DNA of 64,000 nt from a virus: the IMG/VR virus record IMGVR_UViG_3300045988_100778, positions 1 to 64,000 of that record; one strand, 5' to 3'. Of this stretch, positions 1 to 44,869 are shown one piece after another. The notes beneath the pieces are model-generated. The model ran no database searches. It worked only from the letters and a program-made list of their open reading frames with translations, and had not been told where the DNA came from. Positions within the stretch are counted from its first letter, which is position 1, and each line of letters begins with the position of its first letter. The translations under genes and the position numbers were made by a program.

Positions 1-86
1 GTTTCGTGTACATGGTATTAAATTAGTGAAATAACTATTGTTTATTTCTCTATTAAAACCTAACTTTGTGGGTAAAACTTCTATAT

Positions 87-1223
87 ATGGCAAAAAAGAT
101 AGAATATACTAAAGAGGACATATTAAAAGATGCGCCCGATTTCGTACTAATCGCTTCTCCTTACATGCAAGAAAAGTATGTGGCTTATGAGATGGTAAGA
201 AGGGAGCTTGACGAACACCCCGACCGTTTCATGCAGTATGAAGGAAACGAAGGGTATACCTATGTCATAGACCTTAAGCTTGTCAACATAAAAGGTATCA
301 TGGCGAAACGCGGAGCGTCCCAGGAAGCAATAAACGACGCTACAGAAATTCGTACAAATGTGATGTTGCCCCTTCTTGCCAAGTTCCACAGGGTAAAGAG
401 TGAGTATTTCCATGCTTTCGACTTGCATAACGACAAAGCAAAGGCACTTGCCAAACTCACCCCTATGTTACTGGACTTGTTTGGTTCCATGCATAACCCC
501 AAGGATATTATTAAGATTATCCGGAAAAAGGAAGGTTATTCGCTGGGAGAAGAAGATTTAGTAAAATTTTTCAACAACCACAAGTCACTCATAGAGGCAA
601 GGCAAAGCAAATACGTGATGCGTTCTGACCGCTATAAGGTGGCAACGGAAGCCGGAAGACTGGAAATCATAAATGACTGTATGACAGACTTGCAGCTAAA
701 ATATGAGGAGTTCTGGAGCAAAGGAAACGTAGGGAGTGCACTCAATATCCTAAAGGAAATACGCGCCTTATTGGAAGCTGCACGGAAGGAAGTAAAAGGT
801 AATGAAATTAAACTTACAGTTGACGGAAAGATAGATATAAACGCAACCCTGCACGGAGAGGAGAACATAAGCCGTGTAATGCGTGATATACCCGTAAACA
901 GTCTTATAGTGGGTATGGTGGCTGCCAAATCGGGGATAAGTCCCGAAATACTGATGCACCAGCTCTGCACCTCCTATTACAAGGACTTCAACGGATTTGT
1001 AAGTAACCCGGTATTGGGTTCCGAAAAAGTGATGCTGCCTGGAGCGCTTATAAAGACATATGACTGGGGTGAAATAAAAGAGGGAAACAAGAAGTTCGTC
1101 GAAGAGATGGCACCCGAAATAGTCGAGGCAGAAATAATCGAAGAACCGCCTAAATCAAAGACCAGGGAACGGCTTCTTAACCGCCTACGACAAATGAAGG
1201 GTGTGGAAATCGGAAAGAAATAA
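87..1223 (+). CDS. hypothetical phage protein (378 aa)
   Basis: Open frame 66-1223; first ATG at 87 (MAKKIEYTKEDIL...). No family recognised by eye. Confidence 0.6.
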   Translation: MAKKIEYTKEDILKDAPDFVLIASPYMQEKYVAYEMVRRELDEHPDRFMQYEGNEGYTYVIDLKLVNIKGIMAKRGASQEAINDATEIRTNVMLPLLAKFHRVKSEYFHAFDLHNDKAKALAKLTPMLLDLFGSMHNPKDIIKIIRKKEGYSLGEEDLVKFFNNHKSLIEARQSKYVMRSDRYKVATEAGRLEIINDCMTDLQLKYEEFWSKGNVGSALNILKEIRALLEAARKEVKGNEIKLTVDGKIDINATLHGEENISRVMRDIPVNSLIVGMVAAKSGISPEILMHQLCTSYYKDFNGFVSNPVLGSEKVMLPGALIKTYDWGEIKEGNKKFVEEMAPEIVEAEIIEEPPKSKTRERLLNRLRQMKGVEIGKK

Positions 1224-1330
1224 TTACATTTTGTTTTGACTTTTAGTTAATTTATGATTTTCAAAATTCATGTGGTGTACGGTCTGCGATAGATAGTACA
1301 CCTATTTAAACAATTAAAAATAAAGTAGTT

Positions 1331-1498
1331 ATGGTAAAGATATATGTTGAAGAAGTTATAAAGTGCATGATGGAAAGACTTACAAAAGAATATGGTCTGA
1401 CCGAACAACAGGCATTGAAAGAAATTGACATTTGTATGGAAAGACTGTACGTGAAATGGATGCAGAATGAACCGATACCGGAAGAATACAATGATTAA
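1331..1498 (+). CDS. small hypothetical protein (55 aa)
   Basis: ATG 1331 to TAA 1496-1498 (MVKIYVEEVIKCMMERL...). Below the ORF-track cutoff; fills an otherwise empty + strand gap. Confidence 0.35.
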   Translation: MVKIYVEEVIKCMMERLTKEYGLTEQQALKEIDICMERLYVKWMQNEPIPEEYND

Positions 1499-1521
1499 TT
1501 AACCCTATAATATATAAGAGT

Positions 1522-1719
1522 ATGATAATAGCAATTGCGACAATGAAAATGAATGAGGATGTGACTACGCAGGTGCATGTACCTATAAACGTGGAAATAA
1601 TGCAGGTTCCTCCTACAGACAAGGAAGTGGAGAAAATAAAGTCAGTCCTGGAAGAAGAAACCGGATACAAATTCGTATCTTTGGATTCGATAACATGTGA
1701 CATGGACTACGAAATTTAG
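1522..1719 (+). CDS. hypothetical protein (65 aa)
   Basis: ORF track; co-oriented with neighbours and followed by a hairpin terminator. Confidence 0.45.
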   Translation: MIIAIATMKMNEDVTTQVHVPINVEIMQVPPTDKEVEKIKSVLEEETGYKFVSLDSITCDMDYEI

Positions 1720-1777
1720 AATTAAACGAAAAACTTATGTTCATTTTTTGAGTATTAGTAGTTAATATTTAACTGAC

Positions 1778-1810
1778 AGCCAGCGGTTTGTGATAAATAG
1801 CTGGCTTTTA
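1778..1810 (+). terminator. intrinsic terminator hairpin
   Basis: AGCCAGC (1778-1784) pairs with GCTGGCT (1800-1806), followed by TTTTATTAT. Confidence 0.55.
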
Positions 1811-1824
1811 TTATATTCTCTGAT

Positions 1825-1919
1825 ATGTTAATTATATGTTAAAAACACATAAGCAGTTGCGTATGTCTGATTAACTACCTATATTTGCAATGTGATAAGG
1901 AAAACGATAAGTCAAACAA
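1825..1919 (+). promoter_or_regulatory. conserved promoter cassette, copy 1 of 5
   Basis: ATGTTAATTATATGTTAAAA, an imperfect palindrome CATAAGCAGTTGCGTATG containing the TTG (-33), TATATTTG (-7, 1880-1887) and GTCAAACAA (1911-1919). ATG at 1936. Confidence 0.65.
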
Positions 1920-1935
1920 GTAAAAACAAAAGATT

Positions 1936-2313
1936 ATGGCAAATCCTAAAGTAAAATTGGAAGGAAAGAAAATCGCAGAAAAGGTGATGGAGTTCATGGA
2001 CAATCAATCATTCGACCCCATCTATAAGGAGATAGAGGAGAACGGGGACGACACCTATATCAGCGAGATACTGAGATGTATTCCTACAAGAAGAATAATC
2101 GACGATTTGGACGAACGTGGAGAACTTCACGAGGCATACAACGAATATGTGAATATGAACGGAGTAGCTCTCATAAAGGATATGACAAAGATAATGACAA
2201 ACAAGGAAAAGCTCAAACTTGTATCGGAACTTTTTAAGATACCCTATCTGGCAAGTCCGGAAGAATACGGGGAAGCGATAGCGAAAGCAGTAAGGGAACA
2301 GTATTACAGATAA
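1936..2313 (+). CDS. hypothetical protein (125 aa)
   Basis: First ORF after cassette copy 1; AAAAGATTATG start context. Confidence 0.6.
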   Translation: MANPKVKLEGKKIAEKVMEFMDNQSFDPIYKEIEENGDDTYISEILRCIPTRRIIDDLDERGELHEAYNEYVNMNGVALIKDMTKIMTNKEKLKLVSELFKIPYLASPEEYGEAIAKAVREQYYR

Positions 2314-2340
2314 TCATTAGTCACTAAAATCAAAACAAAA

Positions 2341-2643
2341 ATGAAGACCTATACAGTATATTTCAGTGAACCCGTAACGATGAAGTACAAGGGTGACAGA
2401 TTCAACAAGGAATTGAAAAAGTGGGAATATAACGTGGAATGCGAAAAGACAAGCCCGATGTTTACCTTCCATTCCCTGGCACCTGCGAAGAAACTGATTA
2501 AAGAAAATATAGACAAGTACATAGATTCCTGCATAACGAAAACCTGGGCAAACGGTGACTGGGAGAATCTCGGCCCGATAAAACTTGCCGGGAACAACAA
2601 GACTTTCATAGCCAATACCCGTCAAAAGGTTGCGAATTATTAA
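2341..2643 (+). CDS. hypothetical protein (100 aa)
   Basis: ORF track; tightly packed and co-oriented. Confidence 0.6.
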   Translation: MKTYTVYFSEPVTMKYKGDRFNKELKKWEYNVECEKTSPMFTFHSLAPAKKLIKENIDKYIDSCITKTWANGDWENLGPIKLAGNNKTFIANTRQKVANY

Positions 2644-2734
2644 GAGTACGGAAAGAAGGGGTGAAAATCAGAGTAACCCCTATCTCTTTGATTTCCAATA
2701 TAGATATTTTACAAAACTTAAAAATAAAAAGGTT

Positions 2735-3658
2735 ATGGATAAGGAAGAATTCCAGAAAAAGTACGATAACAGTATTTTGGTATGCTGTACAGAAGACAAA
2801 ATCAAAAAAGTATTCAATATTTGCGATTTAATGGACTTAACAGCCTCTAACTCAAAACAAGCTACCGCTATATTGATAGGAAAACAGACGGCAAAAAGCC
2901 CATTGTTCCACGTGGAACAATTCTTGAATGATTTTTATAAGGAGATGGAAGAAGAAAAGAAAGAGACAAAGATGTTTGAACAGAGGATGAACAATGCCAT
3001 ATACAAGCTAAAGCAGAAGTACGAAAGCACATATATAATCAAGGGAACCGATATGGACACGGTAATACAGCTCATATCGGAACTTGGCATGAATACAGTC
3101 CAGAAAGAGGGAAAAGATACGATACTCATAGAAGAAGGGGACACCATACCATGTGTAAGGCATTCAGCAAGGCAGTTCATTACAGAATTGATGTCCAATA
3201 TGATTGATGTATTAGACCCTTTCATAAACGAGGAAATGATGGTTGAAGTCAAGGAAAAGAAAGATACGGAAATAATGATTAATGAAGTAGAATCCTACCT
3301 TACCAACACCCTAACAAAACCCCTACATAAGATATACAACACACAAAGAAGGGTATATTCAATCGGATATGGGTACAATGAAAAGGTAATGATAGATGAG
3401 AACGATTTCTATGTATTTCGGAAAGCGGTGTACCTCCTATACATGTGCAACAAATGGGTAATGGAAGACAACAAGAAGCAGTCAAAGGAACCCACTTTCA
3501 ACAAAGGAAACAAAATAATGTACACCATCAAGGACAGCAACAGCAACACATACCCAGTAAGCAGATTGTCGGAAAGAGTGTACGAATCAAAGGAGCACAA
3601 GACCCTATTCATAACGGACGAGGAAGGGACAGTGACCGGGATATACAAGGAGAAATAA
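2735..3658 (+). CDS. hypothetical protein (307 aa)
   Basis: Open frame 2630-3658. ATG at 2735 preferred: it avoids overlap with the previous gene and has the AAAAGGTTATG context. Confidence 0.6.
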   Translation: MDKEEFQKKYDNSILVCCTEDKIKKVFNICDLMDLTASNSKQATAILIGKQTAKSPLFHVEQFLNDFYKEMEEEKKETKMFEQRMNNAIYKLKQKYESTYIIKGTDMDTVIQLISELGMNTVQKEGKDTILIEEGDTIPCVRHSARQFITELMSNMIDVLDPFINEEMMVEVKEKKDTEIMINEVESYLTNTLTKPLHKIYNTQRRVYSIGYGYNEKVMIDENDFYVFRKAVYLLYMCNKWVMEDNKKQSKEPTFNKGNKIMYTIKDSNSNTYPVSRLSERVYESKEHKTLFITDEEGTVTGIYKEK

Positions 3659-3982
3659 AAAGAGAGAAACACCCTCCACGATACCTTACAGACCATATTT
3701 TATTATTAACCCGTTATACATTTGTTACAATGGTAATGAAGAGTGTCAAGGAGAAAAAGCAATGATAAGAAGAACCGGAAAGGGAACACGGACTGCACCA
3801 TAAAGGAAAAGAAAGGGTTGTTATATCCGACCCCTATATAAACAATATTATAAATCGTCAACCTATAATTGTTAATTTGCGAAATGGGAAGGATATATGG
3901 AAGCCGATATGGACGCAAGACGTGTCCTGGCACGGTTCTTGTATCATTGTACAACGTGGAACAATCATAAAAAGACAACATC

Positions 3983-4147
3983 ATGAAAAGAGAAAAAGAA
4001 TTCAAGGAATACCTAAAGAACAAGTTCATAGATTTAACACCTTGCATAGAGGCATACGAGGACTACAATCTGAGAATAACGGAAGTATTGGATGCACTGG
4101 AAGAACGTCGTACCAAGCATCATCAAACGTGGTTGACGGGAATATAG
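3983..4147 (+). CDS. small hypothetical protein (54 aa)
   Basis: ATG 3983 (MKREKEFKEYLKNKF...) to TAG 4145-4147, translated by hand. Confidence 0.4.
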   Translation: MKREKEFKEYLKNKFIDLTPCIEAYEDYNLRITEVLDALEERRTKHHQTWLTGI

Positions 4148-4152
4148 AATCT

Positions 4153-4380
4153 ATGGTTATCCAGATACCGTCATGGGAAGATAACTTTGAGATAATAGGC
4201 TATGACACATTTGTAGAGAAATATCGGGAATATGACAAGGAATATGAACCGGAACACTACCTAAAGGACGAGAACGGCAATATGGTACACGTGGAACTTG
4301 TAAGCGTCAAGGCAGGAAAGAATATGATAATAACCTGGAAGGACACGGAGACCGGGAAAATGTTCCAGACAATAGAATAA
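4153..4380 (+). CDS. hypothetical protein (75 aa)
   Basis: Internal ATG of the 3877-4380 frame (MVIQIPSWEDNFEIIGY...). The upstream part of that frame overlaps the better 3983 ORF. Confidence 0.45.
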   Translation: MVIQIPSWEDNFEIIGYDTFVEKYREYDKEYEPEHYLKDENGNMVHVELVSVKAGKNMIITWKDTETGKMFQTIE

Positions 4381-4408
4381 TAACCAACATATTAAAAGAC
4401 AAAAGATT

Positions 4409-4891
4409 ATGGAAAAAGATTTGAGAAACAACGTGAAGTTTATCTTATTCTGTACAGAATGCTTGCAGGCAGGCGTAGTAATGACACCAAAGGAATATGA
4501 GATTGCATTCCTGGCAGCATCCAAATTTGAAGGATTTGATGACAAGAGCTTTGAGAACATGAAGGCTGAACAATTTGCGCCCAGAATGAATGCCATGCTC
4601 AATGCAATGTCAAAGAGAAAGCAGATTATCGAAGGACTGACATTCAACCTATTGACAAAGAAAAGCCTGGGTGAATTGATTGAGAGCAACCTTGTAGAAG
4701 AGGTAATGAAGGCAAAGCACATAGCCGCAGCAATGGCAGATGAACTGTTGGAACCGGACGAAAAACTGGAAAAGGTTGTGACTGACGGAAGACGTGTAAT
4801 CGAACACTTCATAGACCAATGGAAGAAAGCCCCTATTGAAGAGGAAAAGAAAGAATACGAGCCAGAAAGCGATGCGGAAATTGTAGAATAA
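4409..4891 (+). CDS. hypothetical protein (160 aa)
   Basis: ORF track; AAAAGATTATG start; followed by a hairpin terminator. Confidence 0.6.
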   Translation: MEKDLRNNVKFILFCTECLQAGVVMTPKEYEIAFLAASKFEGFDDKSFENMKAEQFAPRMNAMLNAMSKRKQIIEGLTFNLLTKKSLGELIESNLVEEVMKAKHIAAAMADELLEPDEKLEKVVTDGRRVIEHFIDQWKKAPIEEEKKEYEPESDAEIVE

Positions 4892-4920
4892 ATCTTTCTA
4901 TATACTTATTATTTTCACAA

Positions 4921-4945
4921 AAGCCCCGAAATGGGGCTTTATTAT
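4921..4945 (+). terminator. intrinsic terminator hairpin
   Basis: AAGCCCC (4921-4927) pairs with GGGGCTT (4933-4939), followed by a T/A-rich tail. Confidence 0.55.
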
Positions 4946-4954
4946 CAAGCAGTT

Positions 4955-5266
4955 ATGGACAAGTCGAAATTAACAAAGGCAAATAAGCTATACAATAAAA
5001 TCGTAAATCTGAAAGAGGAAATAGAGCATATTTCCAGGTTTGAGATGGAGGGAAATATACTGATAACGAACTCCTACGATTCCTATTTCTATATTGACGA
5101 GGATATAGCGAAAACCTATTTCCCGATGATAAAAGAAAGCCTGGTTCAGATAGCTGCAACCCCTATTTTTATTCAAATTTTGTATCATTATGGAAAGAAA
5201 AGAGATTATTGGAAGACTGGGAAGGTATTTCACGCTTCCCGAACTTGTATGCTCCCACGTGTATAA
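4955..5266 (+). CDS. hypothetical protein (103 aa)
   Basis: Frame 4931-5266. The first ATG lies inside the terminator loop, so ATG 4955 is used. The 3' end overlaps the endolysin gene by 77 nt, so the true end is uncertain. Confidence 0.4.
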   Translation: MDKSKLTKANKLYNKIVNLKEEIEHISRFEMEGNILITNSYDSYFYIDEDIAKTYFPMIKESLVQIAATPIFIQILYHYGKKRDYWKTGKVFHASRTCMLPRV

Positions 5267-5657
5267 CAAGTATTCAGAATCGCAGATATGGAGCTTTTTT
5301 ACAACCGAAGCACTGGAGACGCTCCTTGTATTGAGGGAAGAAATCATATGCAAGCCCTTCATTATCAACAACTGGAAGAACGGAGGAAGCTATTCCCAGC
5401 GCGGTTTGCGGTGTAATGTCTGCATATTATGCAAGGAAAAGACGATACTTGAAAAGCCGTATATGAGTGCGCACGCATTGGGTCGCGCTTTTGACATTAC
5501 GGTTTCCGGAATGGAGGCAGAAGCAGCACGGAAAATCATTATAGACGATTCCGACAAGCTTCCTTATCCTATCAGACTGGAGGACGGTGTTAGCTGGCTA
5601 CATGTAGACACTATGGACTTGTGCAACGGCAAGAAAGTGACGCTATTCACAGCGTAA
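5190..5657 (+). CDS. peptidase M15 family cell-wall hydrolase (endolysin)
   Basis: SQRGLRC ... SAHALGRAFD ... SWLHVD matches the zinc-binding H-x-x-G-x-A-x-D / H-x-D layout of M15 (VanY / L-Ala-D-Glu peptidase type) phage lysins. Confidence 0.75.
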   Translation: MERKEIIGRLGRYFTLPELVCSHVYNKYSESQIWSFFTTEALETLLVLREEIICKPFIINNWKNGGSYSQRGLRCNVCILCKEKTILEKPYMSAHALGRAFDITVSGMEAEAARKIIIDDSDKLPYPIRLEDGVSWLHVDTMDLCNGKKVTLFTA

Positions 5658-5734
5658 ATATATTTTACTATATCCAAAAGGTATTCCCCCTTATAGGGCA
5701 ATCGATACTACAGTATGCTGTAGCCGCGATTTTT

Positions 5735-5750
5735 CAAATTTCGTATTTTT
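5735..5750 (+). promoter_or_regulatory. candidate promoter box CAAATTTCGTATTTTT
   Basis: Near-identical motif also at 23173-23187 and 51221-51235, each 20-30 nt upstream of an ATG. Confidence 0.4.
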
Positions 5751-5779
5751 ATCATTTGTAAATTTAAATTGAAATAATT

Positions 5780-6100
5780 ATGTATCCTAACAAAGTAAGT
5801 ATAGCAAATAACAAGGGTTTTGAGAGCATAACAGCGATTTCACGCGCTTTCGAGGTCGGCACACCAGCCGAAGATGTGGTACTGTCAAAGTACACCTTGA
5901 TTCCCGATGATAAAAGGGCGTTTCTTATTATTCCGTTGACTGCTGGTACTGTCAAAGTACACCTTATCGGTGAGACTGGTCCAGATACTTATACCATTTC
6001 CGAGACCGAGATTTCCGCTTATATGGGTTCTCCTATGCCTTATCTTGTTGATAAGGTGTTTGTTGACGGCACTACTGCACAATTCAATATAGGGTTATGA
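5780..6100 (+). CDS. hypothetical protein (106 aa)
   Basis: ORF track; overlaps the next gene by 4 nt (ATGA). Confidence 0.5.
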   Translation: MYPNKVSIANNKGFESITAISRAFEVGTPAEDVVLSKYTLIPDDKRAFLIIPLTAGTVKVHLIGETGPDTYTISETEISAYMGSPMPYLVDKVFVDGTTAQFNIGL

Positions 6101-6747: not shown

Positions 6748-6749
6748 TT

Positions 6750-6998: not shown

Positions 6999-7012
6999 TT
7001 GTTTTCGGGATG

Positions 7013-7050
7013 CCGGGAATTTCGGGTGTTTTGTCCGGTTCCCGGTTTTT
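7013..7050 (+). terminator. intrinsic terminator hairpin
   Basis: CCGGGAA (7013-7019) pairs with TTCCCGG (7039-7045), followed by TTTTT. Confidence 0.6.
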
Positions 7051-7174
7051 CATTTTCCTTATTTTATTGTACACCGAAAAACAACACAATTTTCAGAGTT
7101 AGTGTTAACTGTCTGATAATCATATACCGTTTTCTCCTATTTCTGAAAAATATAATGTCACTGAAAGAAAGGTT

Positions 7175-7266
7175 ATGTTAATCTTATGTTAAAAGCACAT
7201 ACGCACTTGCGTATGTCTGATTAAGTACCTATATTTGCAATGTGATAAGAAATCAAGGTCAAACAA
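7175..7266 (+). promoter_or_regulatory. conserved promoter cassette, copy 2 of 5
   Basis: ATGTTAATCTTATGTTAAAAGCACATACGCACTTGCGTATGTCTGATTAAGTACCTATATTTGCAATGTGATAAG...GTCAAACAA. ATG at 7285. Confidence 0.65.
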
Positions 7267-7284
7267 ATTAAAAGAAATAAGGTT

Positions 7285-7509: not shown

Positions 7510-7522
7510 AAATTAAAGAAAT

Positions 7523-7975: not shown

Positions 7976-7988
7976 AATTCTTTATATT

Positions 7989-9645: not shown

Positions 9646-9698
9646 AACACCCGGTTACGCTTCTCGTGTAGAAATGTTTCCGGGTGTTTTCTTTTGGG
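9646..9698 (+). terminator. intrinsic terminator hairpin
   Basis: AACACCCGG (9646-9654) pairs with CCGGGTGTT (9680-9688), followed by TTCTTTT. Confidence 0.55.
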
Positions 9699-9702: not shown

Positions 9703-9805
9703 ATGTTAATTATATGTTAAAAGGACATAAGCACTTGCGTATGTCGTGATAACTACCTATATTTGCAATGTCTTCTTAAGGGAGATAGTTAATTAGGTCA
9801 AACAA
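9703..9805 (+). promoter_or_regulatory. conserved promoter cassette, copy 3 of 5
   Basis: ATGTTAATTATATGTTAAAAGGACATAAGCACTTGCGTATGTCGTGATAACTACCTATATTTGCAATG...GTCAAACAA (9797-9805). ATG at 9813. Confidence 0.65.
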
Positions 9806-9812
9806 CAAAAAG

Positions 9813-10286
9813 ATGAAGATTATGAAAAAAGGAAATCTGCCAAAACAAGAATACAAGCTTATCAGTATGTGCATGCAGGGAGTTGAGAATGGAATAGCCT
9901 ACAGTTGTTCAGATTGCGGACGCACGATATTCAATTTTGCAATAATCAAAGGGAAAATGGACAACAAGGAATATATCGTAGGTCTTACTTGCGTAAAGAA
10001 GCTGTTAAATAAAACCATCTATTTTTCAAATGAAACACAATGGGAATACGAGAAGGAATTAGCAGGATGGAATAACGCTATGAATTCAAGGAAATGGTTA
10101 GATAAGAACCAGTCCAAAAGAATCAAGGAAGGTTTAAAACCTTATGAACTGGAATACAAGGAATTTGCCGGACATGATGGATTGCAGTATTGCTATATGG
10201 AAATGAGTATAAACGGTAAATATGAAGGGCATACGGCATTTATCGAAACAAAATACAATTCCGTATTTAACGGAATCAAGAATTGA
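9813..10286 (+). CDS. hypothetical protein with a possible zinc ribbon (157 aa)
   Basis: First ORF after cassette copy 3. Cys pairs in CSDCGRT ... LTCVKK. Confidence 0.55.
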   Translation: MKIMKKGNLPKQEYKLISMCMQGVENGIAYSCSDCGRTIFNFAIIKGKMDNKEYIVGLTCVKKLLNKTIYFSNETQWEYEKELAGWNNAMNSRKWLDKNQSKRIKEGLKPYELEYKEFAGHDGLQYCYMEMSINGKYEGHTAFIETKYNSVFNGIKN

Positions 10287-35812: not shown

Positions 35813-35846
35813 AGGGAGTTACAATTTAGTAACTCCCTTTTATTTT
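35813..35846 (+). terminator. intrinsic terminator after the tube gene
   Basis: GGGAGTTAC (35814-35822) pairs with GTAACTCCC (35829-35837), followed by TTTTATTTT. Confidence 0.65.
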
Positions 35847-35945: not shown

Positions 35946-36054
35946 ATGTTAATAAACTAACATTTTATACATAAGCACTTGCGTATCTCATAACATAATA
36001 TTATCTTTGCAATGTGGTTCTGATGAGGGAACCAAAAAATGAAAAGTCAAACAA
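35946..36054 (+). promoter_or_regulatory. conserved promoter cassette, copy 4 of 5
   Basis: ATGTTAATAAACTAACAT...ACATAAGCACTTGCGTATCTCATAACATAATATTATCTTTGCAATG...GTCAAACAA (36046-36054). Confidence 0.6.
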
Positions 36055-36071
36055 ATAAAAAAGATAAGGTT

Positions 36072-36341
36072 ATGAAATCAAATGTAGAAAGAATGACGGA
36101 AGATTTGAAAAAGGTGTTGTTTTCAAATGTATATAGCTTTGAGATTGAAACGAAAGATATAGTTTTCGGATTTAATAAGGTATTGAAGAAAAGAACTAAA
36201 TCAATGGCAAAGGCTATAGCTTTGGAACAAAAACTGAGAAATGATGTCGGACGTTATTTGTCCAGTACAGTAGTTGTTGCTTCTGTAAGAATGTACAGAA
36301 ACGGAGAGTTAAGAGGTGAATTTAAGGCTAATAATTTTTGA
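36072..36341 (+). CDS. hypothetical protein (89 aa)
   Basis: ATG 36072 (GATAAGGTTATG context, after the GTCAAACAA box) preferred over ATG 36039, which lies inside the cassette. Confidence 0.55.
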   Translation: MKSNVERMTEDLKKVLFSNVYSFEIETKDIVFGFNKVLKKRTKSMAKAIALEQKLRNDVGRYLSSTVVVASVRMYRNGELRGEFKANNF

Positions 36342-36343
36342 TT

Positions 36344-36352
36344 GTCAAACAA
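36344..36352 (+). promoter_or_regulatory. stand-alone GTCAAACAA leader box
   Basis: 17 nt upstream of ATG 36369. Confidence 0.4.
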
Positions 36353-36368
36353 ATAAAATTTTGAAGTT

Positions 36369-37010
36369 ATGAACGTTTACAGCAAGTTTTGTCCGAATGT
36401 ATTTTTAGCAAAGTGCGAAGAAAAGTATGAAAAGGGAGAAGTTATCGAAGTAACGACCAAGTATGGAAAGGAAAACGAATGTATTGTTTTCAATCTGATA
36501 TACGAAAAGGACGGATTCTATTACTATTCGATAGTACGTGCAGACGGGTTCAATGTCCAGGAATGGGCGAAGCAAAGAGCAGAAAGACGCAGAATGTGGG
36601 CGGCTTCGGCAGAGCAAAAGAGTAATGAGTATTACGAGAAATCCAATAAAGATAGTGATTTCCTCTCATTAGGAGAACCTATCAAGGTCGGACACCACAG
36701 CGAAAGAGGACATAGAAAAATGATTGACGAAGCCTGGAACAATATGGGCAAAAGTGTTGAGTTCAGCGACAAGGCTGTCGAACATGAAAGAGTAGCCAGG
36801 TATTGGGACAAGAAAGCGGAGGTAATTAATCTATCCATGCCGGAAAGTATAGACTATTACGAGCACAAGTTAGAGAAAGCCAAAGAATATCACGAAGGCT
36901 TGAAGTCCGGCAAATATCCACGGGAACACGTCTATTCTTTGACTTATGCGAAGAAGGCGGTTAATGATATGCAAAAGAACTATGATACAGCAAAAAGATT
37001 GTGGGGATAA
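36369..37010 (+). CDS. DUF3560-like protein
   Basis: LGEPIKVGHHSERGHRKMIDEAWNNMGKSVEFSDKA resembles the G-x-P-I-x-V-G-H-H-S-E-R core recalled for DUF3560. Confidence 0.5.
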   Translation: MNVYSKFCPNVFLAKCEEKYEKGEVIEVTTKYGKENECIVFNLIYEKDGFYYYSIVRADGFNVQEWAKQRAERRRMWAASAEQKSNEYYEKSNKDSDFLSLGEPIKVGHHSERGHRKMIDEAWNNMGKSVEFSDKAVEHERVARYWDKKAEVINLSMPESIDYYEHKLEKAKEYHEGLKSGKYPREHVYSLTYAKKAVNDMQKNYDTAKRLWG

Positions 37011-37101
37011 CAGGAGGATTGAAACAGCCATTGAAAGGATTATAGAATATCTTTTCAATTACACCCCCAACCTTAAGAGAACCCGGTCAAAAATAGAACT
37101 T

Positions 37102-37488
37102 ATGGAAAAGTTCTGGGAAAAGACCGGGATTTCCTCTAATAGGGCATTATGGGAATATATGGTGTTTCAAGGGTCAATGATAGAGAACAGCCGATATAAG
37201 GAAATGATGTTTGACCCCTATAATTTGATAGGACCAAAGGCGATAGAGAAATGGAATAAGAGGGGTAAATACCAGGTATTCATAGCCAATAAACGCCAGC
37301 GAGAAAGAGGATGGATAAGCCCGTTTAAGGAGAAGGAAGAGGGTTTATCTGAAAGATACAGGGAGATGTTGAGGAAAAAGTATTGGAACAAGGAGAAGGG
37401 GTTTATACTTTGCAGCCAGTACGGAGGATGGTTATTCGACAAAAACAGATGTAAGGATTGTATATTTTACAAGGCTTGTGAAAAATGA
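37102..37488 (+). CDS. hypothetical Cys-containing protein (128 aa)
   Basis: First ATG of frame 36946-37488 after the previous stop; C-terminal CKDCIFYKAC. Confidence 0.5.
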   Translation: MEKFWEKTGISSNRALWEYMVFQGSMIENSRYKEMMFDPYNLIGPKAIEKWNKRGKYQVFIANKRQRERGWISPFKEKEEGLSERYREMLRKKYWNKEKGFILCSQYGGWLFDKNRCKDCIFYKACEK

Positions 37489-37534
37489 CATACTAAAAGT
37501 TTATGTTATCAAATAATATTTGTATATTTGTGCC

Positions 37535-37594
37535 ATGAAAAAGACAGTGGGTAACTATATAGAACTTTGCACTAAAAATTATATAAATAAATAG
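37535..37594 (+). pseudogene. 19-codon stub, the displaced original 5' end of the HNH/NinG-like gene
   Basis: TATATTTG-TGCC-ATG AAA AAG ACA GTG ... gives MKKTV. AAGACAGTG recurs at 38871-38879 inside the start of the downstream HNH gene. Confidence 0.45.
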
Positions 37595-38870
37595 GAAATT
37601 TAAAATATTCTATTTATATTTGTGGTATGTATTTAACGGAACAACATATAATAACAGTTAATGATAAGAGGTACAAGGATTTAGACCGGATTTGTTTCTT
37701 ATCCAAGAACTTGTATAATGCGGCTTTATATATCATAAAGCAAGAATTTCTTGTTTCCGGGAAATGGATAAGGTCTGTAGAACTTAATAAAAAGATGGTT
37801 GCAGAAAACAATGTTGATTTTAGGGCTATGAGCGGTTCCTCTTCCCAGCAAATTTTAATGGCTTTGGATAAGAATTTGAAATCTTATTTTTCAGCCATTA
37901 AAGCATGGAAAAGGGATAACAAGAAATTTACCGGATGCCCTAAATTTCCGAAATACAAACATAAGACAAAAGGAAGAAATGTATTTTCTTATTCTTATGT
38001 GCAATTCAGACATAAAGGAGAATATATTTACTTTCCAAAGAAAGAAGGTCTGAAACCGTTAAAAACGAAATGCAAGGAAGGAACAGTTAAGCAAGTCAGA
38101 TTTGTGCCGAAAGCAGATTGTTATGTAATAGAATTGGTATATGAATCAGAAGTAAAGGAACAGTTACTAAACAACAATAGATATATGTCTATTGATTTGG
38201 GGGTTAACAATCTTGCTTCTATTGTAACGAATACGAGTAACAGGGCTGTTTTGGTAGATGGCAAGAAATTAAAGTCTATCAACCAGTATTATAACAAGAA
38301 AAAATCTAAAGTTCAATCACAATTAAAGAAAACAAATGGAAAGGAAAATTCGAGACGGCTAATGAACCTTACAAGAAAAAGAAACAATAAGGTCAAGGAT
38401 TATTTGCATAAGGCAAGCAAGGAAATTGTAAGCATGTGCTTGAAAGACAACATAACTACATTGATAGTAGGACATAATGACGGATGGAAACAAGAAGTAA
38501 ATATGGGTAAAAGAAACAATCAGAATTTTGTTTCAATTCCGTTTGAAACTTTCATATCAATGTTAAGGTATAAATCTGAAAGACAAGGACTAAGATTTGT
38601 TGAAATAAACGAATCTCACACGTCAAAATGCAGTTCTTTAGATTTAGAAGAGGTAAAACATCATGATAGTTATATTGGAAAGAGAGTAAAAAGAGGTCTT
38701 TTCAGAACAAAGGACGGAATTTTACTCAATGCAGATATAAACGGAGCCTATAATATTATGAGAAAAGTAAAGGGGGATGCAGCAATGCCACCCTATAGAG
38801 GGTTTGGGTATAACCCAGTTAAGAAATTTATTAACAAATAGATACAAGTGTAAACATGTATATAATTACC
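37550..38870 (+). mobile_element. tnpB cassette bounded by the 9-bp direct repeat AAGACAGTG
   Basis: The repeats lie at 37541-37549 and 38871-38879. The interval contains only a promoter and tnpB. Confidence 0.55.
37627..38841 (+). CDS. tnpB: TnpB (IS200/IS605-IS607 accessory RNA-guided nuclease family)
   Basis: SIDLGVNNLASI (RuvC-I Asp), VGHNDGWKQEVNMGKRNNQNFVSIPF, EINESHTSKCSSLD and GKRVKRGLFRTKDGILLNADINGAYNIMRK (RuvC-III). 404 aa. Confidence 0.85.
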   Translation: MYLTEQHIITVNDKRYKDLDRICFLSKNLYNAALYIIKQEFLVSGKWIRSVELNKKMVAENNVDFRAMSGSSSQQILMALDKNLKSYFSAIKAWKRDNKKFTGCPKFPKYKHKTKGRNVFSYSYVQFRHKGEYIYFPKKEGLKPLKTKCKEGTVKQVRFVPKADCYVIELVYESEVKEQLLNNNRYMSIDLGVNNLASIVTNTSNRAVLVDGKKLKSINQYYNKKKSKVQSQLKKTNGKENSRRLMNLTRKRNNKVKDYLHKASKEIVSMCLKDNITTLIVGHNDGWKQEVNMGKRNNQNFVSIPFETFISMLRYKSERQGLRFVEINESHTSKCSSLDLEEVKHHDSYIGKRVKRGLFRTKDGILLNADINGAYNIMRKVKGDAAMPPYRGFGYNPVKKFINK

Positions 38871-39296
38871 AAGACAGTGAAGGAAGAAGTAAGACCGTGT
38901 GTTTCTTGTAAGGAGAACCATTTCATATACGACCGTAACAGATGGTTATGTAAGGAATGCTACGACAATAGAAAGAAATTGAAGTTGAACCGCGCTTCAT
39001 TGAAGGAAGAGGAAAACAGGCTTAACGAAGTGTTTGTTAAGGTATGGGAGGAGAACCCCCACTATTGTTTCCATTGTGGAAAGTGGCTGGGGCTTGAAAT
39101 GAAACCTATTTTCTTCTCCCATATATTGAGTAGGGGCGCGCATCCCGGTTTACGTTGTGACCCGGAAAACATAGTTTTGGCATGTATGGAATGCCATCAG
39201 ATATACGATTTCGGAGACAGAAACAGTCTGAAGAACCAGATACCGGAAGAGAGGATAGAAAAACTTTTGGAGAAAGAGCATGGGAAAAGATATTGA
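38856..39296 (+). CDS. HNH / NinG-like zinc-binding nuclease
   Basis: CVSCK...CKEC...CFHCG...SHILSRGAHPGLRCDPENIVLACMECH fits the H-x-x-S-R-G ... N ... C-x-x-C-H layout. Confidence 0.55.
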   Translation: MYIITKTVKEEVRPCVSCKENHFIYDRNRWLCKECYDNRKKLKLNRASLKEEENRLNEVFVKVWEENPHYCFHCGKWLGLEMKPIFFSHILSRGAHPGLRCDPENIVLACMECHQIYDFGDRNSLKNQIPEERIEKLLEKEHGKRY

Positions 39297-39675
39297 TTTA
39301 CTGATAGGATGCGCAGAAGTGTTTACCGCTATAGGACTGAAAAGGATTTCCAGAATGATAGTGGATTACCTGGAGAACCCTAATAGCGAGAAGGCGGAAA
39401 TATTTCAGAAAGAGGTTGAGGCATGGAAGGAATACGAGGAACGTTCAAAAGGCAGAATGTTTGTGTTCAGTGACGGGGAACACGCCCTTATGAAGTATTT
39501 CATTATATCATATGAAAAAGACTGGTATTCGGACGGGAACCCGGCTATAGTGATAAACAAGCTGGCAGATGAAAGTGCATCATTCAAGGACAACCCTATA
39601 AAGAATTTATGGGTAGTGTATAAGAGTGAGGAAGACCGGGACAGGGATTTTGAAAGATTGTTGATAATAAAATAA
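39280..39675 (+). CDS. hypothetical protein (131 aa)
   Basis: ORF track. Confidence 0.55.
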   Translation: MGKDIDLLIGCAEVFTAIGLKRISRMIVDYLENPNSEKAEIFQKEVEAWKEYEERSKGRMFVFSDGEHALMKYFIISYEKDWYSDGNPAIVINKLADESASFKDNPIKNLWVVYKSEEDRDRDFERLLIIK

Positions 39676-39680
39676 AAGTT

Positions 39681-39947
39681 ATGGGAAAATTTTTAATAGA
39701 AGACGTAAACGCAAAAGGATTGCTTATCTGGATGAATAACAATTTCCGGAAGCAGAACGGGAAACGGTTTACCCGTAATGATGTGCAGGCATATATAATG
39801 AGAGGACATTTGCCCGAATATCTGGGAGGAAACGAGATTGTAGTAACCCCTAAAAAGCATTGCACAATCAAGATGTACAACGTATTGGAAAACGATAACA
39901 ACCCGGTAGTGGAGGAAGAAGAAAATGAATGTATTGGTAGCATGTGA
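39681..39947 (+). CDS. hypothetical protein (88 aa)
   Basis: ORF track. Confidence 0.5.
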   Translation: MGKFLIEDVNAKGLLIWMNNNFRKQNGKRFTRNDVQAYIMRGHLPEYLGGNEIVVTPKKHCTIKMYNVLENDNNPVVEEEENECIGSM

Positions 39948-40632
39948 AGAAAGTCAGAGAGTTTGTGAGGCTTTTAGAAAACGAGGACATAACGCCTTTA
40001 GTTGTGACATTGTAGACTGTAGCGGTGGGCACCCCGAATGGCATTTCAAGCAGGATGTTTTGCAGGTTATTCCCAATTTCGGAGGAAAGCTGCAAAACGG
40101 TGAAGAGTATTATTTGCCGGAAGGCGAAGAATGGGATTTGATGGTTGCACACCCACCTTGTACTTATCTATGTGTGTCCGGTGCTGCATGGTATTATCAC
40201 CCGGAAGATAAGGGGCTGCCGATAGAACAGAGAAGACCACATCCGAAATATCCAAACAGGGCGAAAGACCGAGAAGAAGCCGTTAATTTCTTTATGGAGC
40301 TATATAATTCGGGCGTAAAAAGAATTGCCATAGAGAACCCAGTAGGGATTATGAGTACAAGGTTCAGAAAGGCAGACCAAATCATAGAACCTTGGATGTT
40401 CGGGGATGAAGCAAGCAAGAAGACTTGTTTATGGCTTAAAAATCTGCCTAAACTCACTCCTACAAAGATTGTCGGGAAAGGTGAAGTGGTGGAAGGAAAG
40501 AATGGTTTTAGAATGCAGAAATGGTATTGTGATGCTTACGGACTGCCTAAAGAGGAAAGACAGAAGATAAGAAGCAAGACATTTCCGGGCATTGCGGAAG
40601 CGATAGCGGAACAATGGGGTAGTTTAAAATAA
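39925..40632 (+). CDS. putative DNA methyltransferase-like protein
   Basis: VLVACEESQRVCEAFRKRGHNAFSCDI...DLMVAHPPCTYLCVSG. The PPC motif and layout are recalled from phage proteins usually annotated as cytosine methyltransferases. Confidence 0.4.
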   Translation: MNVLVACEESQRVCEAFRKRGHNAFSCDIVDCSGGHPEWHFKQDVLQVIPNFGGKLQNGEEYYLPEGEEWDLMVAHPPCTYLCVSGAAWYYHPEDKGLPIEQRRPHPKYPNRAKDREEAVNFFMELYNSGVKRIAIENPVGIMSTRFRKADQIIEPWMFGDEASKKTCLWLKNLPKLTPTKIVGKGEVVEGKNGFRMQKWYCDAYGLPKEERQKIRSKTFPGIAEAIAEQWGSLK

Positions 40633-40643
40633 ATTTTGGTAAC

Positions 40644-41297
40644 GTGAAAACAAGTAGTAATTTCGTGATTGTCTATGACTTTGAAACCGGGGGATTGCCA
40701 AGCAAGGAGAAGCAGGCTTTTTTGGACATCCCTTTGGTAGAAATGGCTATGTCGTGCATAGACATGAAAAAGTTGGAAATAATAGACCGTGCAGAAATGA
40801 TATTCCCGTATAACTACAAGGAAGGACTTGCAGGATATTCGGAGGAAGCAACGGCAGTACACGGCATAACAAAAGAAGTCCAAGAAGAGAATGCGGTGCC
40901 ATTGAAAGAGATATACAGCACTTGCAAGAAATGGTTCGCCAAATACAAGAATCCACGCCAGATGTGTACGCTTGTAGGGCACAATATCGTAGGATTCGAT
41001 AACCCGTTTCTGAAAAACTTCTTCGCCTACATGAACGACGATATAGACAATTACGTAAAATACTACATAGACACGATGCAGTTTGCACACATGGTAGCTT
41101 TGGAGCAGATGGACTACAAGCTGGGCACGTGTTGCCAGGCTGCCGGGATTGACCTTGTGGAAGCGCACAGGGCGCAGCACGATGTGGATGCGAACGCGAT
41201 GTTGTTCATTTCCTACGTGAAGAAGTTAAGGGGTGAAGGCGTGGAAACGGTGGAGAAGAAAGAAAGGAGATATAGAGAGGACTTCCAGTTATGTTGA
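40644..41297 (+). CDS. DEDDh 3'-5' exonuclease (DnaQ-like)
   Basis: Exo I VYDFETGG, Exo II LVGHNIVGFDNPFL, Exo III AHRAQHDVDANA. GTG start. Confidence 0.8.
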   Translation: MKTSSNFVIVYDFETGGLPSKEKQAFLDIPLVEMAMSCIDMKKLEIIDRAEMIFPYNYKEGLAGYSEEATAVHGITKEVQEENAVPLKEIYSTCKKWFAKYKNPRQMCTLVGHNIVGFDNPFLKNFFAYMNDDIDNYVKYYIDTMQFAHMVALEQMDYKLGTCCQAAGIDLVEAHRAQHDVDANAMLFISYVKKLRGEGVETVEKKERRYREDFQLC

Positions 41298-43405
41298 CGG
41301 GTGACGGAAAAGGAATACTTACAAATAATCAGCTTACATATCTGTACAATGCGGTAGACAATATCATAGAGAGACTGCCGGAAAGGGCGCTTAACCAGTT
41401 GTTGGAAGGATATGGAAACGACGTTGATACCATGCTTAGGGAAATGGTGCATCAGTCGGAAAAGGCGCTGTATCTGGGTCGGACGCTGGATTCAGAAAGT
41501 TTATCCTATGTGGATAACGTGAAAGCCTCTATGGACAATACGCTTAAAATATTGTCCCTCAATTATTTCATAACAACCATGTTGCCTAAATTCCGGTTAG
41601 GGTGGCGTAATATAGAGTGGGGAAATCTCACTCAATTATACCCGTGGAGTTGTTATTTATGCGCCCGGGCGAGTGGCAAGTGCATGAGTGCTGATACATT
41701 GGTTGTAATGTATGATGGGGCTTTGAAGAAGATTCAAGATATAGAAGTTGGTGATAAAGTGATGGGTGTTGATTCAACACCGCGTACAGTGCTGCAATTA
41801 CATAAAGGTGTTGCACCTATGTATAAAGTGAGACAGTCCAAAGGAATGACTTATGAAGTGAATGAAGGACACTTGCTTTGCTGTTATTATAACGGTTATT
41901 TCATTGATGTAGAAGTAGATGCTGTATGTAGACAACAGAAAGATATAAGAAAGTTGTTTCTGGGATATAAAGTCAAGAATATAGGGAAAGGAACACCAGA
42001 ATTTGATTATTCTTCATTGAAGATTGAACCTATTGGAGAGGGGGAATATTATGGTTTTGCGTGCGATGGAGACCATAAGTTTTTATTGGAGGATGGGACG
42101 GTTGTACATAACAGTTATCAATGGTCTTATGCCTTTATTCTGTGGCGTTTATGGTCCTACACAAGACCGACTGCATATAGACAAGACACGGTAGACAATG
42201 CCAACCGGAAAGAAACATGCTATATTACCAATACTTTTACACTGGCAAAGGTGCAGATAGCGAAAGTGACGGAAGAGATAGAGGCGAACGACTTAATAAA
42301 GGAAAAACTGAACCCTTATAATAAGGCTTCAATCGGAGAAACAGCCATAAAGACGGAAACGGGGAGTACGCTGCATGTACGCGGTAAGGATTCAATGATT
42401 CGCGGTCTGCATGTGGGGGCTTGCTTGTGTGACGATATGCCGGATGAAAGCTCCCTATATTCGGACGAACAAAGAGAGAAATTGAAAGAACTTCTGAAAG
42501 GTACTATAGAACCGATTGTAGAGCCATACGGTTACTTTCTTGTAACTGGTACGCCTTATTCTTCTGCACCGAATGAATTGTACCAGATATTGAAGGCAGA
42601 CAAGCGTTTCTATTGTTTTGAATATCCGATATTGTTTCCGGATGGCAGACCGTTGGCACCAGACAGATACACGTTTGAACAGATATTGGCGAAAAAGGAA
42701 GAACTTGGAACGATTGTGTTCAACCGTGAATACTTGGTGGTTCCTATCAGTGACACGTCAACGATATTTCCGTATGAATATCTGATGCGTAGCGTTATAG
42801 GAATGGAAACGATACGTTTTGCGTCAAGTATAGACGATTTTCCTTTCAAGCTTACAAGGGTACATATAGGTGTGGACTTTGCGGTTTCCGGTAATATTGG
42901 AGCGGACTATACAGTGTATTCGGTATGGGGCAAAGATGCGATGGATAACTACTATTTGTTGTACTATTACCGGAAGCGCGGTATGTCGCATAACGAACAG
43001 GTGGATAAGATTGTACAGCTTGACCGACTTTTCCACCCCAATAAGATACGGTGTGAGGCAAACGGTTTCCAGTCCATATTGTCCGGACTGGCAAAGGAAA
43101 GAGGGCTTAAGAATATAGAACCATTTACGACAACGGAAGGAAACAAGAAAGATTTGTATACTGGACTACCTTCTTTGTCCGCAATGTTTGAAAGAGGACA
43201 GATAAAATGCCCCTATGCGATAGGAGAAACGAGGCAGGCGGTTGACTTGATGTTCGGTGAATTTTCTTCTATTACATTTAGAAGTGATAACGGGAAATTG
43301 GAGGCGGCAAGTGGTCACGATGACGTGGTAATGTCGTCGTTCATTTCCTTAAATAGCTTACGCGAAGACGATAAAGAAGTACAAGTAAGTGTAGAATTAA
43401 TATAA
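41291..43405 (+). CDS. terL: terminase large subunit, interrupted by an intein
   Basis: Walker A ARASGK|S split by the intein; Walker B LHVGACLCDDMPDE; nuclease blocks IGVDFAVSG and SGHDDVVMS. Confidence 0.85.
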   Translation: MLTGDGKGILTNNQLTYLYNAVDNIIERLPERALNQLLEGYGNDVDTMLREMVHQSEKALYLGRTLDSESLSYVDNVKASMDNTLKILSLNYFITTMLPKFRLGWRNIEWGNLTQLYPWSCYLCARASGKCMSADTLVVMYDGALKKIQDIEVGDKVMGVDSTPRTVLQLHKGVAPMYKVRQSKGMTYEVNEGHLLCCYYNGYFIDVEVDAVCRQQKDIRKLFLGYKVKNIGKGTPEFDYSSLKIEPIGEGEYYGFACDGDHKFLLEDGTVVHNSYQWSYAFILWRLWSYTRPTAYRQDTVDNANRKETCYITNTFTLAKVQIAKVTEEIEANDLIKEKLNPYNKASIGETAIKTETGSTLHVRGKDSMIRGLHVGACLCDDMPDESSLYSDEQREKLKELLKGTIEPIVEPYGYFLVTGTPYSSAPNELYQILKADKRFYCFEYPILFPDGRPLAPDRYTFEQILAKKEELGTIVFNREYLVVPISDTSTIFPYEYLMRSVIGMETIRFASSIDDFPFKLTRVHIGVDFAVSGNIGADYTVYSVWGKDAMDNYYLLYYYRKRGMSHNEQVDKIVQLDRLFHPNKIRCEANGFQSILSGLAKERGLKNIEPFTTTEGNKKDLYTGLPSLSAMFERGQIKCPYAIGETRQAVDLMFGEFSSITFRSDNGKLEAASGHDDVVMSSFISLNSLREDDKEVQVSVELI
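41681..42112 (+). mobile_element. 144-aa mini-intein in the TerL P-loop
   Basis: Begins CMSADTLVVMYDG, has block B NEGH, ends DGTVVHN, and is followed by Ser. There is no room for a homing-endonuclease domain. Confidence 0.8.
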
Positions 43406-43500
43406 TGTTAATTATATGTTAAAAGCACATAAGCACTTGCGTATGTCATAACATAATCTTATCTTTGTAATGTGAGAAAGAGATAAACGAAGTCAAACAA
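43405..43500 (+). promoter_or_regulatory. conserved promoter cassette, copy 5 of 5
   Basis: Starts on the last base of the terL stop codon: ATGTTAATTATATGTTAAAAGCACATAAGCACTTGCGTATGTCATAACATAATCTTATCTTTGTAATG...GTCAAACAA (43492-43500). Confidence 0.65.
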
Positions 43501-43516
43501 ATAAAAAGATAAGAAA

Positions 43517-44818: not shown

Positions 44819-44857
44819 GTGGGGGTATAGTCTGTTATGGGTTATACCCCCACTTTT
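44819..44857 (+). terminator. intrinsic terminator / attenuator hairpin
   Basis: GTGGGGGTATA (44819-44829) pairs perfectly with TATACCCCCAC (44843-44853), followed by TTTT. Confidence 0.65.
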
Positions 44858-44869
44858 GATTGATTTTGT

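Follow-up and report, generated by a model that had tools for sequence, protein, structure and literature searches.

P_BfP1 (P_BfP1E6), a promoter of the Bacteroides fragilis phages B40-8 and phiB124-14, serves for high constitutive expression in Bacteroides and was reportedly introduced by Whitaker et al. (Cell, 2017). Papers citing this study describe P_BfP1E6 as a strong promoter whose constitutive activity in several species of Bacteroides does not require the phage and exceeds that of the 16S rRNA promoter 70-fold, and they refer to its upstream part as UP elements. The primary sigma factor of Bacteroidota, sigma-ABfr, recognises TTTG near -33 and TAnnTTTG near -7 (PMC7366714). The early promoters of T4 are composed of UP, -35, TGn and -10 elements, match every element of the host RNA polymerase and out-compete host promoters (PMC2988021), and T4-type phages also carry mobile regulatory cassettes termed promoter-early stem-loops (PeSLs; PMC2839356, PMC4122927), neighbouring copies of which recombine to give encapsidated mini-circles. 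Here we analyse a repeated cassette of ~110 bp found in a 64,000-nucleotide stretch of viral DNA (positions 1 to 64,000 of IMG/VR record IMGVR_UViG_3300045988_100778, hereafter the window). We propose that the five near-identical copies of this cassette are probably very strong promoters, each combined with a translation leader and read by the RNA polymerase of a Bacteroidales host carrying its primary sigma factor.

A preliminary description of the window, made from its letters, had listed these five copies as promoter/operator cassettes at the head of small-gene transcription units. The cassettes are a real feature of the window: all five were found on the plus strand where that description had placed them (Table 1), and an nhmmer profile built only from the cassettes of relatives returned exactly these five in the window (E 8e-15 to 3e-21, next match E>1). 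Five matches to the 18-nt core CATAAGCACTTGCGTATG were counted, none deviating by more than one base, as against 0.02 expected from shuffles, and TAnnTTTGYAATG is matched exactly at the five cassettes and nowhere else in the window. All copies are intergenic, lie on the coding strand and mostly follow terminators. The order and spacing of the elements were also as described, namely ATGTTAA-N4-ATGTTAAAA, a palindrome with its TTG, exactly 20 nt and TAT(A/C)TTTG followed by (C/T)AATGT; in detail, the variable stretch that comes next measures 20-36 nt and the ATG lies 16-18 nt after the GTCAAACAA that ends it. The same holds for three finer points, in that the upstream repeat of copy 4 is inverted (ATGTTA...TAACAT), copies 4 and 5 have the spacer CATAACATAAT in common and the ATGTTAA of copy 5 has its first base at 43405, where the terL stop codon (43403-43405) ends. 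In copy 3, the likely start codon is the ATG at 9822, which agrees better than the ATG at 9813 with the 16-18-nt spacing and with the relatives. Megablast of window positions 1-20000 and blastn of copy 5 against INPHARED gave no match; at the sequence level the cassette is absent from deposited cultured phages. Text searches of the accessible literature found no account of the cassette or of the TGTTAA repeat, apart from the UP elements mentioned for P_BfP1E6.

The centre of the cassette has the geometry of a Bacteroidota primary-sigma promoter. A -7 element TAnnTTTG is present in all copies (TATATTTG in copies 1-3, TATCTTTG in copies 4 and 5), and a TTG stands exactly 20 nt before it in 5/5 copies, within the ~19-21 nt expected of the sigma-ABfr -33 element. 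The base preceding this TTG is C or G (CTTG/GTTG) and not T, and CTTG is common in the host promoters that were sampled. Together with the intergenic, coding-strand location of the cassettes and their colinearity with P_BfP1, presented below, this geometry supports the earlier proposal that they are promoters heading transcription units. A sigma-70 promoter scan of the window is uninformative for a host of the Bacteroidota type.

Species genomes were then scanned for the -33 context of the cassette and its -7 box at the cassette spacing (CASTTGCGTATNT-N13-TATNTTTG). This pattern gave 111 matches, as against the 9-24 that we estimate to arise by chance, nearly all of them in metagenome-assembled genomes (MAGs) of Bacteroidales, upstream of tRNAs and of ordinary genes. 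The 111 host loci contain 84 further promoter-like sites with a 20-nt spacer, ~45% of which carry TTGC(G/A)(T/C)AT; the words after TTG at these 84 sites include CGTAT (13), CATAT (14), CACAT (8) and CGCAT (3), usually followed by (A/G)T(C/G). No such enrichment was found at the 25 sites with a 19-nt spacer and the 13 sites with a 21-nt spacer in the same loci. Because host promoters with a 20-nt spacer carry the same words after TTG, TTGCGTATGTC, which comprises the right arm of the palindrome plus 3 nt, is to all appearances an extended -33 element of Bacteroidales host promoters. The cassettes therefore resemble the sigma-ABfr promoters of Bacteroidota hosts in their -7 box, -33 TTG, 20-nt spacing and extended -33, whereas the tandem TGTTAA repeat, the left palindrome arm and the GTCAAACAA leader, which are all cassette features, are missing from the sampled host promoters.

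These host sequences also provided observations in their own right. On Bacteroidales chromosomes the extended -33 has the consensus TTGC(G/A)(T/C)AT(A/G)T(C/G), separated from TAnnTTTG by precisely 20 nt (compare window 7207-7217). In Paludibacteraceae and rumen MAGs, a near-identical promoter of ~60 bp (TTTTTTATAAAAAGTACGCGCGCACTTGCGTATATAAAAAAAATGTTGTATCTTTGCAGGC) is reused before many different genes, and some divergent host promoter pairs share a single palindromic -33, such as TTGCATATATGCAA in host locus L124.

For the comparison with P_BfP1, the ends of P_BfP1E6 were taken from published primers (supplement of PMC12596196). The 3' 23-mer of P_BfP1E6 was located in viral contigs of 44,929 and 47,159 bp, which have the sizes of B40-8 and phiB124-14, respectively. 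In native P_BfP1, a terminator is followed by GGTTAATCTATTGTTAAAA, 13 nt, a TTG within CACTTG, 19 nt and TATATTTGCAGTGT, then by an A-rich leader containing AAACAAA and the ATG. B40-8 has three P_BfP1-type copies, at 66, 18975 and 32541 (locus L229), each of which precedes the start of a short open reading frame (ORF) that is unannotated in the GenBank record. The window cassettes are colinear with all three and share the P_BfP1-type layout: terminator, tandem repeat GTTAA-N5-TGTTAAAA, CACTTG at -33, a 19-20-nt spacer, TATATTTGCArTGT (that is, TATATTTGCA(A/G)TGT) and an A-rich, AACAA-containing leader without a Shine-Dalgarno sequence before the ATG. Both types are, moreover, repeated within the genome of a phage that infects Bacteroidales or, for the window, probably does so. 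They differ in the gap between repeat and TTG (13 nt in P_BfP1, 12 nt in the window), in the palindrome CATAAGCA...TGCGTATG of the window cassettes, which the B40-8 copies lack, and in their carriers, a 45-kb B. fragilis phage and a ~105-kb myovirus respectively. Since P_BfP1E6 is active without the phage, a promoter of such a layout needs no phage protein.

In the mechanism that we envisage, tandem TGTTAA(AA) repeats 11 bp apart, at ~-62 and -51, would serve as UP-like upstream elements. The host polymerase would recognise the extended -33 element cACTTGCGTATGTC, the fixed 20-nt spacer, the -7 box TAT(A/C)TTTG and the conserved start region CAATGT, with +1 placed near the A/G of CAATGTG. The transcript would begin with a variable 5' segment, sometimes forming a small hairpin, followed by GTCAAACAA, an unstructured A-rich stretch and, 16-18 nt after GTCAAACAA, the ATG. 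As every element conforms to the host consensus, no phage factor should be required for the cassettes to be active, so that expression would start as soon as the phage infects and might last throughout infection, and the cassettes would divide the genome into accessory-gene units between the structural modules. T4 early promoters are comparable in their host-type elements, in their extra conserved upstream positions and in heading many small non-essential genes, but they rely on another sigma factor and another consensus, the cassettes being of the Bacteroidota -33/-7 type; an ADP-ribosyltransferase of the Alt/Mod type was not found either, although no search was aimed at one. It is reasonable to regard the cassettes as a co-regulated class; the labels "early" and "operator" attached to them in the preliminary description are unproven, with some of the evidence speaking against the operator.

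The leaders are consistent with this role in translation. They are A-rich and have no Shine-Dalgarno sequence, the RNA is predicted to lack structure from GTCAAACAA up to and including the start codon, and the only leader hairpins noted, both small, are a 5' hairpin in copy 3 (CUUCUU...) and GGUUC...GAACC in copy 4. An A is found at -3 in 3/5 copies, and also at -6 and at -11 to -14; A at these positions is reported to favour translation in Bacteroidota without Shine-Dalgarno pairing (PMC7366714). Words resembling GTCAAACAA occur in 165 of 178 unique cassettes and in the leaders of other phage families as well.

Several points count against reading the cassettes as host-type promoters. Their -33 is CTTG rather than the consensus TTTG. 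The extended -33 was defined on host loci that had been picked because each holds one such site, and these loci belong mostly to rumen or gut Paludibacteraceae or to unclassified Bacteroidales, which are perhaps not the host of this phage. The conserved left arm CATAAGCA is not accounted for by a host-type promoter, and no tandem TGTTAA repeat was found in 839 kb of Bacteroidales host loci, in which TAnnTTTG boxes number 788; this absence is suggestive only, because the sample is small, and the repeat may thus not be an ordinary host UP element. With an nhmmer profile of the window family, homology to the P_BfP1 copies of B40-8 was detected only over the -7/start region (E 0.0075-0.05) and not over the whole cassette. 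As homology is undetectable outside this region, the parallel with P_BfP1 is best taken as one of architecture, and the window cassette as an analogue that forms a separate family. Finally, the start sites were placed from sequence alone and the host of the phage is uncultured.

The palindrome overlapping the -33 element had been put forward as an operator, i.e. the cassettes would be regulated promoters in which the 18-bp palindrome binds a dimeric repressor of the phage or of the host that shuts off all cassette units. Such an operator is compatible with a host-type promoter. We examined 120 unique cassettes anchored on the upstream repeat and CATA, so that the inner core was left unconstrained. 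At seven of the eight mirrored pairs there is next to no variation, with the outermost pair being C/G in 97/120, which leaves these pairs uninformative about symmetry. The palindrome spans the sigma region-4 site, a classic position for a repressor; in addition, its left arm is matched neither in host promoters nor in P_BfP1-type cassettes. The remaining pair (positions 5 and 14) is AG in 58, CT in 25, AT in 25 and CG in 10 cassettes. It is complementary in 35/120, as against ~55 expected from independent columns, and so is mismatched more often than matched, with no sign of selection for symmetry and no support for a hairpin. The right arm is itself accounted for by the host-type extended -33. 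A scan of the window ORFs for helix-turn-helix (HTH) regulators returned none that was significant: the 12350 product gave weak HTH matches only (E 0.03-0.06), and the only solid HTH belongs to a serine recombinase (31548-32030, HTH-resolvase), in a scan confined to ORFs of the window, with ~40 kb of the phage genome lying outside it. The operator proposal is thus weakened, and we consider it rather unlikely.

With the right arm explained by the host-type -33, the left arm CATAAGCA (~-43 to -36) would be the only conserved part that is specific to this phage family, lacking a counterpart in hosts or in other phages. It may be contacted by a family-specific regulator or by RNA polymerase. In most other repeat-bearing phage families the corresponding position is simply A/T-rich. 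Two other explanations of the inverted repeat were discarded. It is not a general feature around the -33 of such phage promoters, one B40-8 copy having an unrelated imperfect repeat and the other two none, and the left arm does not act as the -33 of a divergent minus-strand promoter, as it reads GTG or CTG instead of TTG and has no TAnnTTTG at the right distance.

The palindrome might alternatively be a structure-dependent element, acting as a cruciform or hairpin for an N4-like phage RNA polymerase or as an RNA hairpin. It does consist of an 8-bp inverted repeat with a 2-nt centre, and the window contains an ORF of 3426 aa, which is about the size of the N4 virion RNA polymerase. This giant ORF, however, carries Baseplate_J, CarboxypepD_reg, PEGA and Big_1 domains and was rejected as a polymerase in favour of a tail protein. 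No compensatory changes were observed, mismatches being preferred at the variable pair, and no Rfam match was obtained. The palindrome also lies upstream of the presumed start and would therefore not be part of the mRNA. A structural role of this kind is very improbable.

The upstream repeat was investigated by a search of viral contigs in which GTTAA-N5-TGTTAAAA had to precede a -33/-7 promoter, at a gap chosen to leave out the window family. The tandem repeat before such a promoter was found at no fewer than 120 viral loci from many samples, environments and contig sizes (IMG/VR, L299-L417), as compared with a single locus for a composition-matched scramble of the repeat. These loci belong to many sequence families, which resemble one another little outside (A)ATGTTAAAGnnnTGTTAAAA, the core promoter and their short A/C-rich leaders, in which words of the CAAACAA type occur. 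Because it occurs before -33/-7 promoters at so many diverse viral loci, the TGTTAA repeat is evidently not an operator private to this phage, and it is most simply read as an UP-like element in helical phase. Direct repeats with an 11-bp period beside a palindrome in AT-rich DNA also resemble iteron-type origins, and the cassettes might in principle be replication iterons, packaging sites or relics of mobile elements with no part in transcription. Against this stand the dispersal of the five copies, always on the coding strand and at a fixed distance from a start codon, the perfect -33/-7 geometry and conserved leader of each copy, and the activity of the same layout as a promoter in P_BfP1, so that we give a non-transcriptional origin hardly any credence.

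The host-type promoter that we favour leaves room for a second function. In viral contigs, the core pattern and the repeat pattern were each found at 113 loci at least, and a conservation profile of 187 unique cassettes has its maxima at the repeats, the core, the -7 box with the TGT that follows, and parts of the spacer. The first gene behind the cassette varies among relatives, with ~25 or more different genes found in this place, and the variants of its upstream repeat, spacer and leader occur in most combinations, including all four of S1/S2 x L1/L3. A terminator-like hairpin was found within ~200 nt upstream of 60% of the family cassettes and of 14% of control windows. The cassettes could thus be mobile regulatory modules, in which terminator-promoter repeats provide patches of homology for swapping, inserting and deleting small-gene units, as do the PeSLs of T4. 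In addition to the mosaic combinations and the variety of first genes, the copy-5 cassette is missing after terL in one relative or more, and 51 of the 509 homology breakpoints between the window and its relatives (10%) lie no more than 60 nt from a cassette, with cassettes accounting for ~2.5% of the DNA that was compared; this ~4-fold enrichment, with hot spots at 9800 (junction of copy 3 and its gene) and 43400 (terL/copy 5), was counted on partial loci of related genomes with a statistic that ignores phylogeny. On the other hand, 90% of the breakpoints lie elsewhere, many of them within units; copies 2 and 4 are, moreover, separated from their terminators and copy 5 has none. The resemblance to PeSLs would lie in short composite repeats of terminator and strong promoter that flank units of small ORFans and mark points of modular exchange; the differences are a terminator that is not always contiguous in the window family, an enrichment of only ~4-fold and unrelated phage and host lineages. 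Mosaic cassettes before varied genes hint at a PeSL-like role in recombination but fall short of demonstrating it. Exchange of this type, which is not exclusive of a host-type promoter, has in our view a little less than an even chance of being correct.

The three peculiarities of the family could also be parts of a whole. A phage-restricted TGTTAA element common to Bacteroidota phages, an operator at CATAAGCA and PeSL-like modules might together form a regulatory layer undescribed for Bacteroidota phages, in which the 11-bp-phased repeat would be read by the host alpha-CTD in a non-host mode or by a conserved injected or early factor, the left arm CATAAGCA would turn the host-type -33 into an operator for coordinated shut-off, and the cassettes would spread accessory genes among the members of an abundant gut phage clade. 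We regard this combined interpretation as doubtful.

The units headed by the cassettes, and the terminators that delimit them, are only partly as first described. A hairpin terminator had been assigned to each of copies 1-4; such hairpins adjoin copies 1 and 3, while those of copies 2 and 4 lie 100-130 nt upstream, and the one at 7012-7046 is weak, its signal being local only (z -0.3 for the whole 116-nt stretch). All five cassettes had been said to drive small ORFs of unknown function. The first ORFs are indeed small and unknown (74-154 aa), but the units also contain larger and known genes, such as a 342-aa ORF in the copy-1 unit and DUF3560, TnpB, DNA methyltransferase, exonuclease and TerL genes in the copy-4 unit. 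Pfam and PHROG scans of the cassette-proximal small ORFs yielded no functions, apart from a sub-threshold SprT-like match of the 107-aa product of copy 5 and an unnamed PHROG for the copy-3 gene. Copies 1-3 head consecutive units of unknown genes (~1936-6998, 7285-9609 and 9822-10938). No convincing internal terminator or other sigma-A promoter was found within the copy-4 unit, which for this reason appears to extend as far as terL, by way of the genes for TnpB, the methyltransferase and the exonuclease. Copy 5 is located within the structural region and heads four small genes that end at the terminator hairpin 44819-44853.

Table 1. Coordinates of the cassettes, terminators, copy-4 unit and recognisable genes of the window
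Feature	Position	Strand	Details
Copy 1	1825..1935	+	repeats 1825-1831 and 1836-1844; palindrome 1848-1865 (TTG 1857-1859); -7 box 1880-1887; GTCAAACAA 1911-1919; ATG 1936 (125-aa ORF)
Copy 2	7175..7284	+	repeats 7175-7181 and 7186-7194; perfect palindrome CATACGCACTTGCGTATG 7198-7215; -7 box 7230-7237; GTCAAACAA 7258-7266; ATG 7285 (74-aa ORF)
Copy 3	9703..9821	+	palindrome 9726-9743; -7 box 9758-9765; GTCAAACAA 9797-9805; likely start ATG 9822
Copy 4	35946..36071	+	inverted upstream repeat; palindrome 35970-35987; -7 box 36002-36009; GTCAAACAA 36046-36054; ATG 36072
Copy 5	43405..43516	+	palindrome 43428-43445; -7 box 43460-43467; GTCAAACAA 43492-43500; ATG 43517 (107-aa ORF)
Terminator-like hairpin 1778-1806 with U-run	1778..1815	+	directly 5' of copy 1; minimum free energy (MFE) -15.3 kcal/mol, z -2.2
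Hairpin 7012-7046, GCCGGGAA...UUCCCGGU plus UUUUUCAUUUU	7012..7057	+	~120 nt 5' of copy 2; likely end of copy-1 unit
Strong terminator, hairpin 9646-9688 with UUUUCUUUU	9646..9697	+	adjoins copy 3, ends copy-2 unit; MFE -21.4 kcal/mol, z -3.55
Strong terminator, hairpin 35813-35838	35813..35846	+	~100 nt 5' of copy 4, ends head/sheath module; z -4.15
Strong terminator, 16-bp stem with TTTT	44819..44860	+	closes copy-5 small-gene unit
Putative copy-4 unit	36072..43405	+	89-aa ORF; DUF3560; TnpB 37627-38841; DNA methyltransferase 39925-40632; exonuclease 40644-41297; TerL 41291-43405
Portal	18050-19759		
Major head protein	27743-29257		
Tail sheath	33636-35279		

The window represents ~60% of the genome of an uncultured gut phage, a myovirus of ~105-108 kb. 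Its exact TerL sequence is found on 77 contigs of up to 107,881 bp, and the nearest deposited relatives by TerL are an unannotated human-faecal scaffold (65% identity) and the B. thetaiotaomicron phages DAC16/19/20/22/23 (35%). Besides the portal, head, sheath and terminase genes, a lysin-like tail protein and a baseplate protein were recognised, and no tRNA genes were found in the window. We infer a Bacteroidales host from a BACON-domain protein and from the type of promoter. This protein (16544-18046, 500 aa) lies inside the head-gene block, as does a NUDIX and DUF5856 protein (23170-25005, 611 aa).

Other features of the window deserve mention. The TnpB of the copy-4 unit (404 aa, with OrfB_IS605 and Cas12f-like TNB domains, window 37570-38841) is flanked by homology breakpoints of relatives at ~37400 and 38800, and is therefore present in some relatives and absent from others; in locus L102 the same TnpB-element end (TATATAAATAAATAGGAAATTT...) is inserted right after the GTCAAACAAA of a cassette, which puts TnpB directly behind it. 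The serine recombinase mentioned above, of 160 aa, has an N-terminal HTH_17/MerR-like domain and a Resolvase catalytic domain, lies between structural genes and is followed by two ORFs at 32032-33524; its layout resembles that of an IS607-type TnpA or of a DNA invertase. The first gene of the tail module (ATG 44870) begins 17 nt beyond the terminator that closes the copy-5 unit, with no sigma-A-type promoter in between, and transcription of the tail module may require read-through or antitermination, originating at copy 5 or at a promoter-like site at 44395. The 3426-aa ORF (52977-63257), which has five CarboxypepD_reg repeats next to its other domains, encodes a giant baseplate or fibre protein. 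The only minus-strand genes of the window are two at 11206-12350 (160 and 69 aa, without family matches), which diverge from a sigma-A-like promoter at 12126 (TTG, 19 nt, TATGTTTG) heading a 392-aa ORF and the head module; this region could be a regulatory switch.

For annotation, the cassette marks the starts of transcription units in an abundant, uncultured clade of ~105-kb gut myoviruses, whose TerL and capsid fall into 90%-identity clusters of 453 and 2153 members, and it flags the accessory-gene units that are likeliest to act on the host. For engineering, it would provide Bacteroidales with a second family of promoter and leader parts beside P_BfP1, one that is independent of it in sequence and probably very strong. 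Promoter recognition in Bacteroidota is still mostly defined by the -33 TTTG and the -7 TAnnTTTG, and the present analysis brings two side results that can be tested, an extended -33 element TTGC(G/A)(T/C)AT(A/G)T at a fixed 20-nt spacing on Bacteroidales chromosomes and a widespread tandem TGTTAA upstream element in viral contigs.

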